64,000 nt of DNA. It comes from an uncultured cyanobacterium (GTDB lineage: Bacteria > Cyanobacteriota > Cyanobacteriia > Pseudanabaenales > Pseudanabaenaceae). Below, piece after piece: positions 1,920 through 8,224 of this stretch; position 1 is the stretch's first letter, and each line of letters opens with the position of its first letter. The stretch is taken from assembly GCA_963703315.1 (NCBI GenBank), contig OY969811.1:1216001-1280000 (forward strand), given 5' to 3'. Under the pieces are notes generated by a model. The model saw only the letters and a list, made by a program, of their open reading frames with translations. It made no database searches and was not told the origin of the DNA. The translations under genes and the position numbers were made by a program.

Positions 1920-3176
1920 CTATGGATCAACCCAGCGATCGTCGGATTTGATCAGCGCAATCAACTGCTCTACACCTTCAGCTTCAGGTACGCGCTTGAT
2001 TTCTTCTTTGCCACGATAGAGCGAGATGATTCCAGGGGTTTTGCCAACATAGCCATAGTCTGCATCTGCCATTTCCCCAGGTCCATTAACGATGCAACCC
2101 ATTACGGCAATGTCTAGACCAACCAAATGGCTAGTAGCTTCACGGACTTTATGTAGGACTTCTTCTAGGTTGAATAAAGTACGACCGCAGGATGGACAAG
2201 CGACATATTCGACCATCGTTTTGCGGAGTCCGAGGGACTGCAAAATGCTATAGCAAACAGGGATTTCTTTTTCGGGGGCTTCGGTGAGAGAGACGCGGAT
2301 GGTGTCACCAATGCCTTGAGATAATAAGGTGGCAATACCTGCGGTGGACTTGATCCGACCATATTCACCATCACCTGCTTCGGTTACGCCTAAATGTAAG
2401 GGATAGTCCATGCCAAGCTGATCCATGCGCTTGACCATCAGTTGATAGGCGGCGATCATCACAGGAACACGGGATGCCTTCATGGAAATGACGATATTTC
2501 TAAAGTCTAGATCTTCACAAATCCGAATAAACTCGATCGCAGATTCGACCATGCCCTGAGGAGTGTCACCGTAGGTAAATAACATCCGCTCGGCAAGTGA
2601 GCCATGATTTACGCCGATCCGCATAGCTTTACCTTGTTCTTTAAGGCTCAAAACTAAAGGCTTAAGGGTATCACGGACTTTTTCGGCGATTTCGTCAAAT
2701 TCTGATTGGGTGTATTCGGTGCGATTTGCTTTGGGTTTCTCGAATACATATAAGCCGGGATTAATGCGGACTTTGTGAATATGCTTGGCGACTTCGAGGG
2801 CAATTTTCATACCGTTGTGGTGGACATCGGCAACCAGAGGCACATCAAGATAAGTACGTTTGAGCTTTTGACGAATTTCTGAGAGTGCGGCGGCGTGAGC
2901 CATGCTAGGGACAGTGACGCGCACAATTTCGCAGCCAATTTCATGCAAGCGGCGAATTCCTGCTACGGAGCCATCAATATCGAGGGTATCTTCATTAATC
3001 ATCGACTGTACTACTACAGGTGCGCCGCCACCGATGGTGATATTGCCCACTTGTACAGGTCGGGTTTTGCGTCTGACGATTACACCAAGATTTTCGTTGC
3101 CATCGATAATTGGTTCAGCTTGGGCGGGTTGTGTGCCGTTTTGGATGCTTTTTGTATTCTCAGAAACAGTCGTCAT
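1920..3176 (-). CDS. ispG: (E)-4-hydroxy-3-methylbut-2-enyl-diphosphate synthase
   Basis: [44 protein letters not shown] and [10 protein letters not shown] motifs. Confidence 0.97.
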
Positions 3177-3404
3177 AACACTTTTAGTTACTTTCAGTTA
3201 TTAGTTTATCTGAAAGTAGGTAAAATATAGCTTTATTCTTGTCTTTAAATATAAGGATATAAAAGGTGATTGTGCTAATGCCGATCTCGCTATTCACCGC
3301 TAAACTAAAAGTATTGTAAAAATCTGACAAAATTGGGATACGGTCAATACACTCGCCAATTACAGTTCCATTTTAATATTTCAAAAATAAAAGCTAGTAA
3401 AGCC

Positions 3405-6400
3405 ATGTCATCCTCTCCATCACAACCTGCAACTGATTTGCGCGAGGCTTACCGTGTGTGTGAGCCAAAGCCTTTAAATGGAGATGATTTTGAAAAATAT
3501 TATGAGCCTTTATTGGATGAGAATGATTTTGATGCAGTAAAAGCGATCGGGGCTTCTCTATTTGTGCAGGAATTGGGAGAACATAAGACTTTTTTTCTAG
3601 CTGGGCATCGTGGTTGTGGCAAGACAACAGAATTAAATTTGCTTGTAAAGAATTGGGGTGAAGATTATCATGTGATTTACATTGAAACTCTCAATATATT
3701 AGATATTCACAATATCGACTGCATTGATATTTATTTACTCGCTGTATTTTATGTTAATCAACATATAGATAAGTATGAAATTAAAATTGAGATAAACATT
3801 ATCAAACAATTTGAAGATGTTATCACTAGAATTATTCGTTGTGCTACAGGATATTCTAATGGACAAAAACTTGAAGATGAAATTTCTTCGTTAAGATATA
3901 TTGCAGAAAAAGAGGATAGTAGAAGATTAGAGTTGCTAACAGGTTTTGCGTCACTTTTGAATGGAATATTACTTAAAATAAATAGATCAGAAATAATTGA
4001 TGGATTGAATTATTCATCGACTTCAGAGATGTTGAACCATGAAAAAATTACAACGTATAGAGAAGCATTTGCTCATTATAAAGATGAGTTTAGGGATATA
4101 TTTGAAGTGCTTTTAAATGATTTTAATAAAGCACTTAAAAAACAGAACAATAGCTGTAAAGGACTTTTAATTATATTCGATGATATTGATAAATGTGATT
4201 CGGATACAGCTAAGATTCTTTTTCAAAATCAAATAGAAAATCTTTTTGAGATTAGGTGTAATGTAATCTACACTGTTCCAATATTTAGTCTGAATTATTT
4301 GGAGGAAACGCATCAAAATGTTTTCCTTATTCCACTGTTAAACATTTATAAATTTAGAGAATCTGAACTACAGCCACAGATAAATAACTGGACAGTTCAA
4401 AAAATTACAAATTTGTTGAATCGGCGAGTTGATATAAATGTTTTATTTGATTCAGATAAAATTATATACAAACTAATTATTTCTAGTGGAGGTCATTTAA
4501 GAAACCTATTCATGTTATTGCAACTCTCATATATATCTGCAATTGGCAGAGGTAATAAGACCGTTAACGAGATAGATGCTAATTATTCAATTGAACACTT
4601 TCAGAATGATTTTGAACGTTATATTCCTTCTGAATTGTATTATGACATCGCTAACTCTTTCTATACAAAGGCTTTGCAAAATGATTCAGCAGCTTTAGCT
4701 GTGTATGCGGGGGTAATATCGCAATACCGTTATAAAAAAAGAGACTGGTTGTTCCCAAATCCTATTATTTTACAAATTGATAAATTCAAAAATGCGCTCC
4801 GTGAAGTAAAAAAATTATCAACGGAAATTTCAGAATCCAAACAACTAGATTATTCTTGGCGAAACTTGGTGATTGTAGAAATTGAACTTAAAAATATTCG
4901 ATGCTTTGAGAATTTGAAAATAGATTTTACTGAAGCTGATAAACTTTCTGATTGGTTCATGATTTTGGGTGAAAATGCCGCAGGAAAAACGACTTTACTT
5001 AGAAGTATTGCTCTTGGACTATGCGATCAAAGTGATGCTGCTGCTTTAATGTCATCTCTGCGTGGAGATTTAGTACGAGATGGTGCAGATGAAGGCTCTA
5101 TCAAGATCGTGTTGTGTAACAAAGATGCCTCACAAATCCCCCTTTTGCGATCGCAACAACTACGTCGAGCATTACTAAGCGCTTTTCCAACTATCTCTAA
5201 ACTTAAAGCCCTCAAAAATGCTTTACCAGAAGAATTAGGTCAACCCTCACCATATCCTAGCCTTTCCGAACAGATTGTTGAGATGATTGGGCGTGCAAAC
5301 ACAGAAGAAAAGCTTGACGAGTTAATAGCGATCGCTCGTCAACAAAGTCCAGATAATCGATCTTTGCAAAATCTAGACGGAGATAACCAAACAAATACTT
5401 ATACGATTACAACTACGATTACCAAGCAATCGGAAAAAAGTGAAACTCTTACCCAAAAAATTGAGCCAGAAATTGATTTTCTGTGGTCAGATATTTTTGT
5501 ATGTGGTTACGGGGCAAATCGTACTACCCAAACTTACACAAATCATGAAGGCTACCGCAGCCTTGATGCTGTGCAATCATTGTTTACTTCTCAAGTCTCT
5601 TTTCAAGATCCAGAAGTAGTTTTGCGGCGGCGCAGCGATGAAGTCCGCAAGCAGATCGAACAACAATTACTCAAAGTACTGATGCTTGATGACCATGCCG
5701 AATATCAGTTTCATTACAGCGATCGCGGTATCGAAGTCGATGGTCCTTGGGGTAGACAGCCCCTTGCCGCGCTCAGTGATGGCTATCGAAGCACTAGCCA
5801 ATGGCTGCTGGATTTTATTGGGTGGGCTGTTCATGCTAATCGACTTACAGAAAGCGGTAATATCGGCGGCATTCTGCTCATAGATGAAGTAGAACAACAT
5901 TTACATCCTCTTTGGCAACGTTACTTTGTGCAGCGTTTGCATGAGATGTTTCCTAACACTCAAATTATTGCTTCCACGCATACACCTCTAGCAGCTTCAG
6001 GAGTTGCTGATATCGAGAGCGGTCTTCTGGTGAAGCTAGACCGTAGCCCTGAAAACGGTGTTCAAGCTAAGCTAATCAACAAAGAAGAACTATATGGTAA
6101 ACGTGCCGATCAGGTACTGACTTCAGAGGCTTTCGGCTTATTTACCAGTCGTAATCAAGGCAGTTTGACTGACATTGATCGCTACTCTGAACTACTTGGT
6201 CATACTCAACTAACAGCAAAAGAAGAAGACGAATTACAGGAATTACGCGAAAAGCTGCAAGACAGTCTTCAAGATGGTGAAAATGCTACAGAAAGATTAG
6301 TCAGGAGAGAAGTGGAATCTGCTATTGAGAAAACGGCAAGCGATATTACGCCTGAATTGCTGGAGCTAGAAATCGCCAAACACCTACAACAGCTTTCTAA

Positions 6401-6413
6401 TCAGGGGGCTTAG
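3405..6413 (+). CDS. Two-NTPase fusion: N-terminal P-loop NTPase plus C-terminal AAA_21/PtuA-like ABC ATPase with an inserted EAD1-like domain
   Basis: First module: Walker A GHRGCGKT, Walker B IIFDDIDK. Second module: IELKNIRCF, GENAAGKT, LSDGY signature, LLIDEVEQHLHP, STHTP. ATG 3405 preferred over TTG 3333. Confidence 0.8.
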   Translation: MSSSPSQPATDLREAYRVCEPKPLNGDDFEKYYEPLLDENDFDAVKAIGASLFVQELGEHKTFFLAGHRGCGKTTELNLLVKNWGEDYHVIYIETLNILDIHNIDCIDIYLLAVFYVNQHIDKYEIKIEINIIKQFEDVITRIIRCATGYSNGQKLEDEISSLRYIAEKEDSRRLELLTGFASLLNGILLKINRSEIIDGLNYSSTSEMLNHEKITTYREAFAHYKDEFRDIFEVLLNDFNKALKKQNNSCKGLLIIFDDIDKCDSDTAKILFQNQIENLFEIRCNVIYTVPIFSLNYLEETHQNVFLIPLLNIYKFRESELQPQINNWTVQKITNLLNRRVDINVLFDSDKIIYKLIISSGGHLRNLFMLLQLSYISAIGRGNKTVNEIDANYSIEHFQNDFERYIPSELYYDIANSFYTKALQNDSAALAVYAGVISQYRYKKRDWLFPNPIILQIDKFKNALREVKKLSTEISESKQLDYSWRNLVIVEIELKNIRCFENLKIDFTEADKLSDWFMILGENAAGKTTLLRSIALGLCDQSDAAALMSSLRGDLVRDGADEGSIKIVLCNKDASQIPLLRSQQLRRALLSAFPTISKLKALKNALPEELGQPSPYPSLSEQIVEMIGRANTEEKLDELIAIARQQSPDNRSLQNLDGDNQTNTYTITTTITKQSEKSETLTQKIEPEIDFLWSDIFVCGYGANRTTQTYTNHEGYRSLDAVQSLFTSQVSFQDPEVVLRRRSDEVRKQIEQQLLKVLMLDDHAEYQFHYSDRGIEVDGPWGRQPLAALSDGYRSTSQWLLDFIGWAVHANRLTESGNIGGILLIDEVEQHLHPLWQRYFVQRLHEMFPNTQIIASTHTPLAASGVADIESGLLVKLDRSPENGVQAKLINKEELYGKRADQVLTSEAFGLFTSRNQGSLTDIDRYSELLGHTQLTAKEEDELQELREKLQDSLQDGENATERLVRREVESAIEKTASDITPELLELEIAKHLQQLSNQGA

Positions 6414-6415
6414 AG

Positions 6416-7315
6416 GTGAGGAAAATCTTTGTTCAGGAGCCAGATAGTGACATCTGGAAGAAATGGATTCGTGATTGTCAAGAAGAAACCAAAAAGGCAA
6501 TAGATTCAGTTGCTAAAGGAGAAAGACCAATAGTTAACGAGAATCTATACAAGAGAGATAGTATTAAAAAGAGCTATTTTGTTAGTAGAGATGCACCATT
6601 TTATGGGCGTTGTGCCTATTGTGAAACCCCAATTGCTGACACTCAATATATTCAAGTCGAACACTTTCGCCCCAAAGCAGGAATTAAAGATGAGAATGGT
6701 AGAGTGATTAATCTCAAGGATGAGAACGGAATTGATACAGGAAAACCACACCTTGGGTATTACTGGCTAGCTTACGATTGGCGAAATCTACTTCCTTCTT
6801 GTGCAATATGTAATCAGCCGAAAAGCACGGTCTTCCCAGTTGTTGGACGACACGCTCAAATTCCTAGCGAAGAATCAAACGAAAGTCCCCTACTGATTAA
6901 TCCAATCAGCGAATTAGAAAAGGATAATCCAGAGCATCATCTATCTGTTGATATAAACACTGGGATTATGTATGCTGTGAATGAAAGTTTTCGGGGTGCA
7001 ATGTGTATCCAGATTTTCAAACTTAACGAACGTGAACAATTAGTTGATGGAAGAAAAAATATACGAAGAAACTCTAATGCGATGATCATAGAATTTCAGA
7101 ATGCCCACACAAAACTTTCTGATCCAACCTATTTGAAAAAGCAAGCTTATCAAGAAATTATCGAACACTATGAAGAATTAATCGGTGTTTTTGAAGGGAA
7201 GAAGCCCTACACGATAGCTTATTTGAGCATATTGCGGAAACAAGGTTTTTCAATTGAGTGGCTTCAGAAACAATGCCAGATATTTCAAGATCTTCTTTCT
7301 AAACTTGATCACTAA
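6416..7315 (+). CDS. HNH endonuclease (PtuB/retron-effector-like)
   Basis: CAYCE...VEHFRPK...YYWLAYDWRNLLPSCAICN...K; GTG start 2 nt after the ATPase stop. Confidence 0.85.
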   Translation: MRKIFVQEPDSDIWKKWIRDCQEETKKAIDSVAKGERPIVNENLYKRDSIKKSYFVSRDAPFYGRCAYCETPIADTQYIQVEHFRPKAGIKDENGRVINLKDENGIDTGKPHLGYYWLAYDWRNLLPSCAICNQPKSTVFPVVGRHAQIPSEESNESPLLINPISELEKDNPEHHLSVDINTGIMYAVNESFRGAMCIQIFKLNEREQLVDGRKNIRRNSNAMIIEFQNAHTKLSDPTYLKKQAYQEIIEHYEELIGVFEGKKPYTIAYLSILRKQGFSIEWLQKQCQIFQDLLSKLDH

Positions 7316-7408
7316 TAGCGATCGCATGAAAATCATCAACAAAACAAAGGATCTTGGCGATCGCCTACGATGAAGTAACATAATATTGCAAAATAAATAT
7401 ATTTGTCC

Positions 7409-8224
7409 ATGAATTATTTTCCTGCTCATCGATATTTTGCTTACCTTACGTCACCAGCGATCGCCTCTATGCCAGATAAACAAAACGTGGTGATTATTCA
7501 GCCGATGGGGGCGATCGAGCAGCATGGCGCACATTTACCATTAATTGTTGATGCGGCGATTAGTATTGGGGTGTTGGCAAGGGCTTTAGCAAAATTAGAT
7601 CCTGCGATTCCTGCCTATGCTTTGCCGCCTCTGTATTACGGCAAATCGAATGAGCATATTGGTTTTGGAGGAACGATTACGTTGAGTACACAGACAATGC
7701 TGGCGGTGTTAACTGACATTGCTGAAAGTGTGCATCGGGCAGGATTTCGCAAGTTAGCCTTGATGAATTCCCACGGTGGACAGCCGCAAATTTTGGAAAT
7801 AGTGGCTCGGGATCTCCACTCGAAATATCGCGATTTCGAGATCTTTCCGCTTTTTACTTGGCACGTTCCCAATGCCACCAAAGATTTATTAACCGCCAAA
7901 GAGTTAGAATTTGGAATTCATGGCGGCGATGCCGAAACTAGTTTGATGTTGGCGCTTTTGCCTGAACAGGTACAAATGGATAAAGCCGTAACTGAATATC
8001 CCTATGGATTGCCTGAGAATAGTCTACTCAGTATGGAATCTGCGAATCCCTTTGCATGGGTGATGCGTGATTTGACTCGAAGTGGAGTGTTGGGGGATGC
8101 TAAAGCGGCAACTAGAGAAAAAGGGGAAAAGATTCTGGATTCTCTAGTTGATGGTTGGGTGCAATTGATTGAAGATATTTACAAGTTTGAGCAACCAAAA
8201 GCATATGGCAATCATCTCCTCTAA
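7409..8224 (+). CDS. Creatininase family amidohydrolase
   Basis: [26 protein letters not shown] and HGGDAETS motifs. Confidence 0.88.

Follow-up and report, generated by a model that had tools for sequence, protein, structure and literature searches.

Septu type I systems consist of an ABC ATPase, PtuA, followed by an HNH nuclease, PtuB. The C-terminal helices of PtuA sandwich PtuB, and stand-alone Septu is restrained by ATP (PMC12819146, PMC12673091). One Septu, EcB88, cleaves tRNA-Tyr, and both its Walker and HNH motifs are required (PMC13096335). In the retron form, an N-terminal extension of PtuA binds the reverse transcriptase (RT) and so attaches the regulator (PMC12819146). How stand-alone Septu senses infection is unsettled; an ATP drop and tail fibres have been proposed as triggers (PMC12819146, PMC12673091). 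In this study, we analyzed a 64,000-nt stretch of DNA (the window) from an uncultured cyanobacterium of the Pseudanabaenaceae (contig OY969811.1, positions 1,216,001 to 1,280,000), in which positions 3405 to 7315 hold a ptuA-ptuB gene pair. This pair is very probably a working Septu, and its PtuA carries an additional STAND-like nucleoside triphosphatase (NTPase) at the N-terminus. We tentatively read the locus, with slightly less than an even chance of being right, as a Septu module of abortive defence whose PtuA N-terminal slot holds a captured split-STAND switch, an added gate that was originally read by partners in trans. The two genes and their parts are as follows.

3405-6413, + strand: gene 1, NTPase-PtuA(EAD1) fusion (ATG start, 1002 amino acids (aa))
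3405-4820, + strand: N-terminal AAA+/STAND-like NTPase, aa 1-472 (core, helical lid, C-terminal subdomain)
3717-4145, + strand: helical insert of the NTPase, aa 105-247, from Walker A to Walker B (structure model)
4866-6413, + strand: PtuA ABC ATPase, aa 488-1002 (PADLOC, PDB sequence match, Foldseek)
5154-5375, + strand: EAD1 adaptor, aa 584-657, between two beta-strands of the ABC N-lobe
6165-6398, + strand: C-terminal helical extension of PtuA, the expected dock for PtuB (model helices 921-998)
6416-7315, + strand: gene 2, PtuB HNH nuclease with zinc-finger cysteines (GTG start, 299 aa)

The ABC part of gene 1 was identified as PtuA by PADLOC (PDLC00292, E 3.2e-68; PDLC00304, E 3.5e-52 over aa 489-971) and by sequence comparison with the PDB, where the best match was E. 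coli Septu PtuA 8EE4 (E 2.4e-16). Foldseek also supported this identity. The PtuA motifs are GENAAGKT (522-529), LSDGY (790-794), LLIDEVEQHLHP (824-835) and STH (857-859). Walker A, signature, Walker B, D-loop and H-loop are intact, being invariant or nearly so in 27 aligned rows, and helices 921-998 are present in the structure model. Gene 2 matched PtuB (PADLOC PDLC00339, E 7.1e-41) and the Pfam HNH family (22.2 bits, cut-off 21.4); a PDB sequence search with it found nothing at E <= 0.1. Its HNH residues C66/C69, E82-H83, N124 and C129/C132/N133 were kept in 9/9 aligned copies. An earlier, sequence-only reading of this DNA had proposed a Septu-like ATPase with an HNH nuclease and no RT nearby. 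The PADLOC and 8EE4 matches bore out the Septu-like identity, and all motifs quoted for both genes, those of the nuclease included, were found where they had been placed. These results demonstrated that both proteins of the pair are intact; both are also under purifying selection.

The pair was then compared with the two described relatives. Septu type I (E. coli structures 8EE4, 8EE7, 8EEA, 8SUX; EcB88, PMC13096335) has the same order of ABC ATPase and HNH gene with all ABC motifs, and the C-terminal helical extension and the absence of an RT are common to both. At the signature position where Ec78 has Gln, E. coli Septu has Leu and the window has LSDGY, so that the signature is of the stand-alone Septu type. 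In contrast to Septu type I, the window PtuA is twice as long, with a 472-aa STAND-like NTPase in front and EAD1 in the ABC N-lobe, and it comes from a clade with an interchangeable N-terminal slot. Type I-A retrons (Ec78/Eco7, Ec83/Eco4) use the same effector pair and likewise carry their regulator at the PtuA N-terminus (PMC12819146). The window differs from them in that its regulator would be a fused protein switch and its genome has no RT, as the sequence-only reading had noted for the neighborhood: PF00078 gave 0 matches over the whole 99.67%-complete genome (G000), with the control positive in 3/14 genomes. The NCBIfam models for Ec78 PtuA and PtuB gave 90.9 bits (cut-off 500) and 41.3 bits (cut-off 150). 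A retron identity was rejected since no RT is adjacent or in the genome. The pair very probably works like Septu, showing each testable feature of it, and is not a retron.

The N-terminal NTPase carries the motifs GHRGCGKT (67-74) and IIFDDIDK (256-263). Its domain model (predicted local distance difference test (pLDDT) 89) shows a P-loop core, a helical lid and a C-terminal subdomain where a winged helix is expected. The closest folds were Cdc6 (Z 15.3, root-mean-square deviation (rmsd) 3.2, 243 residues aligned), TnsC (Z 14.7, rmsd 4.3, 286 aligned) and SSO1545 (Z 13.2, rmsd 4.4, 289 aligned, over aa 17-462), and the Foldseek matches of the model were RdrA and Cdc6. Pfam KAP (PF07693) scored 22.5 bits for aa 1-485 (cut-off 20) and 18.7 for the whole protein. 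The window NTPase, a possible KAP member, has its helical insert between Walker A and Walker B, where KAP NTPases have one. No nSTAND2 Pfam match was found for the NTPase at E <= 0.001, PADLOC gave nothing for it alone (best E 0.0055), and there was no TPR, WD40 or LRR match within gene 1. The module had been put at about 490 aa; it exists, with its length corrected to about 472 aa plus a 15-aa linker. Likewise, both of the NTPase modules proposed for gene 1 were found, and the EAD1 inserted in the second had been overlooked.

We next asked where this NTPase comes from. It belongs to a family of stand-alone NTPases of about 450 aa, with 2657 clusters at E <= 0.001 among 8000 scored. In the donor pair the NTPase comes first, and the gene after it encodes an unnamed head domain together with TPR or WD40 repeats. 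The window NTPase is 33-36% identical to its nearest stand-alone relatives, and the other fusion allele described below reaches 68-72%. The genome of the window itself holds six stand-alone NTPase paralogues (tblastn), five of which are followed by TPR or WD40 genes. A profile of the partner head matched beside 16/16 stand-alone loci, 14 of which had helped to build it, and beside 0/16 fused loci, of which two were the same stretch and one was partial; it matched nowhere in the window. No partner gene adjoins the fusion. Profile comparison of the partner head with the NTPase gave no match (probability 0.15), and an Atlas search for the head returned unnamed clusters only. These results indicate that the first gene of a cyanobacterial split-STAND-like pair gave rise to the fused NTPase; the window's copy is of the same family, fused to a nuclease and without an adjacent partner. 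The nearest described systems are the nSTAND2 two-gene operon and, as a candidate relation, the MNS-clade Npun2340/2341 (PMC8195603). In the nSTAND2 system two STAND genes, one of them inactive, occur with GT4/HEPN effectors (PMC8195603). Classical NLR-like and Avs STANDs carry the repeat sensor in the same chain, whereas the donor family has its repeats in the next gene. Seven partner-head genes were found in the window's genome, two of them without an adjacent NTPase. At G000:C1:3660743-3666172 and 3905377-3910374, large proteins combine a partner head, a Walker A motif and WD-like repeats, with no adjacent NTPase.

The fusion itself is genuine. Among the 120 PtuA proteins listed, at least 20 are NTPase+PtuA+EAD1 proteins (17 full length, 3 fragments). 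A named homologue in this list puts the window in or near the cyanobacterial genus Pseudanabaena. The full fusion gene is also present in 8/36 other genomes of the genus at 59-86% identity, with ptuB next to it at the same 2-nt gap; a single-protein scan of genome contigs gave 10 close relatives only. The 17 full-length clusters and the eight relatives led us to reject a sequencing or assembly artefact. One of the copies (G021) is interrupted by an in-frame TAG at codon 504; in a ninth genome the gene is split over two contig pieces. The genomic surroundings of the copies differ, except for two with a common upstream gene. With aa 666-1002 as query, the fusion was not found at E <= 1e-40 in 400 other genomes of the phylum, one of them from the genus.

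The N-terminus of this PtuA clade behaves as a socket. Of the 120 listed PtuA proteins, 65 carried TIR, 24 a member of the NTPase family, 12 PNP (alone or together with TIR) and 19 other domains; the TIR and PNP labels come from precomputed Pfam matches. Extensions scanned in 30 proteins included caspase, trypsin, SIR2+NACHT, calcineurin-like, HD-CE, Roc-COR and receiver domains. In a PtuA tree (FastTree), 20 NTPase+EAD1 rows formed one clade (support 99) within TIR+EAD1 rows (99), so that a TIR was replaced by the NTPase here. On the same tree, members of the NTPase family are fused to PtuA at three or more positions, one of them a long branch. Among representatives clustered at 50% identity, an N-terminal extension was present in 95 of the best 150; 49 of these are bare and 6 are partial. 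An HNH gene lay directly 3' in 73/73 metagenome loci with room for it, of 80 loci; the HNH profile used had gene 2 as its seed and was made from these same loci, three of which are near copies. The sequence-only reading had called the locus a candidate new anti-phage system; 'new system' was overstated, as the locus shows one of the architectures found in a PtuA clade whose N-terminal slot is interchangeable. Further PtuA fusions, to TIR-NB-ARC-TPR, UvrD, sigma-54 activator, receiver-GGDEF and cold-shock domains, were seen in L112, L131, L134, L144 and L145. Bare PtuA/PtuB pairs recur with an upstream 4-HFC-P synthase (PF04476) and, downstream, SAM-decarboxylase-like (PF02675) and DUF3326 (PF11805) genes. 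Such operons lie at L152:5001-8975 and L156:4258-8921, the two loci on which Pfam was run, and similar ones in L146-L148, L153, L155 and L159-L163 (34-66% GC); they possibly form a larger undescribed system.

EAD1 has been proposed as a homotypic adaptor that is present in two or more copies (PMC7159879). In gene 1 it scored 29.7 bits (cut-off 24.2), and 34 bits in the genome search. The ratio of nonsynonymous to synonymous substitution rates (dN/dS) of this domain was 0.07-0.19 in 7/8 pairs, the remaining pair being saturated. As in the EAD1-coupled conflict systems of multicellular bacteria (PMC7159879, PMC8195603), EAD1 of the window PtuA is over the cut-off, and sister PtuA architectures carry the same effectors (TIR, PNP, caspase, trypsin, calcineurin-like). 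It differs in being internal and in being single-copy in 10/11 genomes: EAD1 was present in 11/48 genomes of the genus, several of them drafts, and in 10 it lay solely inside the fusion gene. The eleventh, G020, has two further EAD1s in a MoxR-vWA-type operon. This operon (G020, L164:915-7744) adjoins Tn7-like TnsB/TnsC/TniQ-type genes; apart from EAD1, its gene names come from reading the sequence. The window's own genome gave one EAD1 match and no second, and recruitment of another EAD1 protein was rejected for that reason. Because a single conserved copy sits within an oligomeric ATPase, these results suggest that the lone EAD1 most likely pairs with the EAD1 of neighboring PtuA subunits.

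The operon occupies a variable chromosomal slot, whose borders are as follows.

1920-3176, - strand: ispG, left neighbor (named from the sequence, no library call)
3177-3404, + strand: upstream intergenic region (93-94% identity to relatives)
7318-7364, no strand: right edge of the variable slot, with two GCGATCGC repeats, where identity to G028 resumes
7403-8224: creatininase-family gene, right neighbor (Pfam PF02633, E 1.5e-72)

The coordinates and the PF02633 match confirmed the two-gene operon with a 2-nt gap between ispG and a creatininase gene. An upstream in-frame TTG at 3333 is in the open reading frame list; homologues start at the ATG at 3405 instead. The GCGATCGC repeat, presumably HIP1, was given no weight because it is common (1.8 per kb). 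We examined 30 ispG loci out of 48 genomes. The slot from ispG to creatininase was empty in 4/30 loci, and 19/30 had other neighbors. It held a small two-gene pair in 3/30 (L079:4656-5812; L080:1530-2674; L047; creatininase seen in two), which from its motif looks like a PIN toxin-antitoxin. An NTPase+TPR pair filled the slot in 2/30 (G031, intact, and G028) and the fusion in another 2/30 (G067 and the window). In G028, a 10-nt tandem duplication shifts the frame of the stand-alone NTPase near its start (L026:6400-6480). The upstream region 3177-3404 is common to relatives whose slot is filled either by an NTPase+TPR pair or by the other fusion allele. The fused NTPase of G067 is 73% identical to the stand-alone NTPase of G028. 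Between the window and G067, DNA identity was 81-97% in the flanks and from 5401 onward, and 39-65% over 3401-5400; the 5' block was therefore exchanged as a unit. Between the two 5' alleles, identity is 62% in the ABC N-lobe and 48% in EAD1, much as to a TIR sister (62% and 51%), so a linear story from young to old fusion is not established. Their NTPases grouped with support 78 in one tree and were ungrouped in another quick tree. The window allele belongs to the diverged fusions, as opposed to the conserved-type ones.

If the captured switch gates the nuclease, the system could work in the following way. As in the Septu work, PtuA oligomers would hold PtuB via the C-terminal helices, ATP binding would restrain the nuclease, and infection would release DNA or tRNA cleavage. 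The NTPase would bind nucleotide and shift state when a partner docking domain, supplied by one of the seven partner-domain genes of the genome, binds in trans and offers an invariant Arg near the nucleotide site. The change of state may then remodel the PtuA oligomer and free PtuB. The trigger of the window's allele may be retuned, because the diverged allele has a remodelled surface. The docking step was modelled with the window NTPase and the partner head of G031. This complex scored 0.64, a mark reached by 116/157 solved pairs and 2/215 mismatched pairs, and the best of three controls scored 0.00. Contacts agreed to 70% or more among three runs, with a partner pLDDT of 70-74. The modelled interface joins NTPase residues 69, 100-102, 260 and 263, by the nucleotide site, to partner residues 126-131. 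Arg129 of the partner, invariant in 14/14 rows, lies within this segment but is not a named contact; it may act as an arginine finger. Of 12 conserved interface positions, conserved-type fusions (five closely related rows) hold 98%, compared with 84% elsewhere. The sequence-only reading had made the NTPase a built-in sensor or regulator. This is plausible in view of the donor family, the repeated fusion, purifying selection and the complex model; the switch role, like the gating and defence role of the pair, is what we infer.

Several observations weigh against the captured-switch reading. The complex score reflects family likeness rather than binding by this copy, because family alignments were used, and close cousins passed as well. 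The window allele holds 42% of the conserved interface positions against 51% elsewhere; for all diverged fusions taken together the figures are 57% and 49%. In the full-length model of gene 1 (predicted template modelling score 0.50), the arrangement of the two ATPases is not confident. NTPase dN/dS was 0.20-0.48 in 36/36 pairs, a rough estimate because dS was often above 1, and PtuA was far tighter at 0.06-0.18. The NTPase DNA is AT-rich (31% GC versus 42%), and the stem branch to the diverged clade measures 1.7 substitutions per site. Diverged fusions retain 63-72 of 128 family-invariant columns, whereas conserved-type fusions retain 110-113. Of 12 diverged fusions, 8 have lost R366, and all 12 have lost R40 and E440. 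The fusion loci are single insertions amid housekeeping genes and not defence islands. Since bare PtuA/PtuB pairs are common (49/150), the domain is dispensable at the clade level. For the same reason no retron substitute is required, and the earlier suggestion that the NTPase could take the role of a retron was an analogy only.

The NTPase may instead be a direct invader sensor. Freed from its partner, it would keep its nucleotide core while the insert and the surface change so as to bind a phage protein or DNA, and it would activate PtuAB with no need of a TPR partner. The fold does resemble DNA-binding initiators of the Cdc6/TnsC type, the window allele has not preferentially kept the partner surface, and the 2-kb 5' block was swapped between alleles at one slot. 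The contrast within the gene is sharp: aa 1-100 and PtuA are 83-97% identical and aa 101-470 merely 31-50% in most copies. By segment, aa 1-100 are 83-90% identical in 7/8 copies, and aa 101-230, which cover most of the helical insert, form the most divergent stretch (23-70%; 28% GC). However, no NTPase segment had dN/dS above 1, and dN and dS are both raised, which is equally consistent with drift or import. We consider a direct sensor unlikely. A passenger NTPase, left when a Septu cassette recombined into an NTPase+TPR operon and gained its promoter, start and recombination anchor, would now be in slow decay on a plain Septu. The upstream DNA and the 5' gene end are the same as in the NTPase+TPR operon, and the long stem, the AT drift, the loss of about half of the family-invariant columns and the TAG-broken copy of G021 fit such decay. 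Many unrelated domains also fill the slot, including RR-GGDEF, a sigma-54 activator and UvrD. Yet about 470 residues stay in frame in the 17 full-length clusters without a large deletion. Walker A, Walker B, R341 and SGG are retained in 12/12 diverged fusions, dN/dS of aa 1-100 is 0.10-0.25, and the same family was fused independently at least three times. Such decay is improbable on this evidence. Switch-type STAND and Cdc6 folds are slow ATPases, which argues against a second effector or primer whose triggered burning of ATP would lower the restraining ATP and release the PtuAB nuclease. Likely turnover residues also erode (R366 in 8/12, E76 changed to Q in 8/12). The slot mostly holds effector-type domains (TIR, PNP, SIR2, calcineurin-like), and low ATP boosts Septu DNase (PMC12673091; PMC12819146); we regard this explanation as very unlikely.

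Should the captured switch control the nuclease, the sensor pair would gain its first testable output: nuclease activity would report on a large cyanobacterial NTPase/TPR family of no known function. If the NTPase is a passenger, the locus is an ordinary Septu with baggage. In a wider picture, which is possible but somewhat doubtful, cyanobacterial NTPase+TPR/WD40 pairs would be split NLR-like immune sensors. The fusion would be their first visible output, a Septu nuclease on the switch half that host TPR/WD40 proteins read in trans, with the docking domain giving a catalytic arginine. More broadly, the PtuA clade would be an open-socket nuclease platform that repeatedly takes TIR, PNP, protease, Roc-COR and STAND modules. 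The natural slot series (empty, NTPase+TPR, two fusion alleles), together with the TIR, PNP and bare sisters, makes sensing testable by domain swap, and the system offers a test of the role of a lone EAD1. No description of an NTPase-PtuA(EAD1) fusion was found in the literature, which was searched mostly by title and abstract start. ABC+HNH pairs with variable N-terminal domains may already be listed in Krishnan et al. 2020, which classifies ABC ATPases, and in a 2023 study of calcineurin-CE/HD-CE effectors. The term 'ABC' is absent from the main texts of PMC7159879 and PMC8195603.

A promoter scan of the locus gave 18 sites against 15.5 +/- 3.9 expected by chance and a terminator scan 4 against 2.5 +/- 1.7, neither being a signal. 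Three metatranscriptome contig sets from two studies (word share 0.06-0.07) gave no sign of transcription; their contigs cover ptuA-ptuB of relatives at 85-99% identity but intergenic DNA too, and so do not count as evidence of transcription. Elsewhere in the window's genome, another ABC ATPase gene and the 234-aa gene after it (G000:C1:849647-851688) look like a second, unrelated Septu-like pair.

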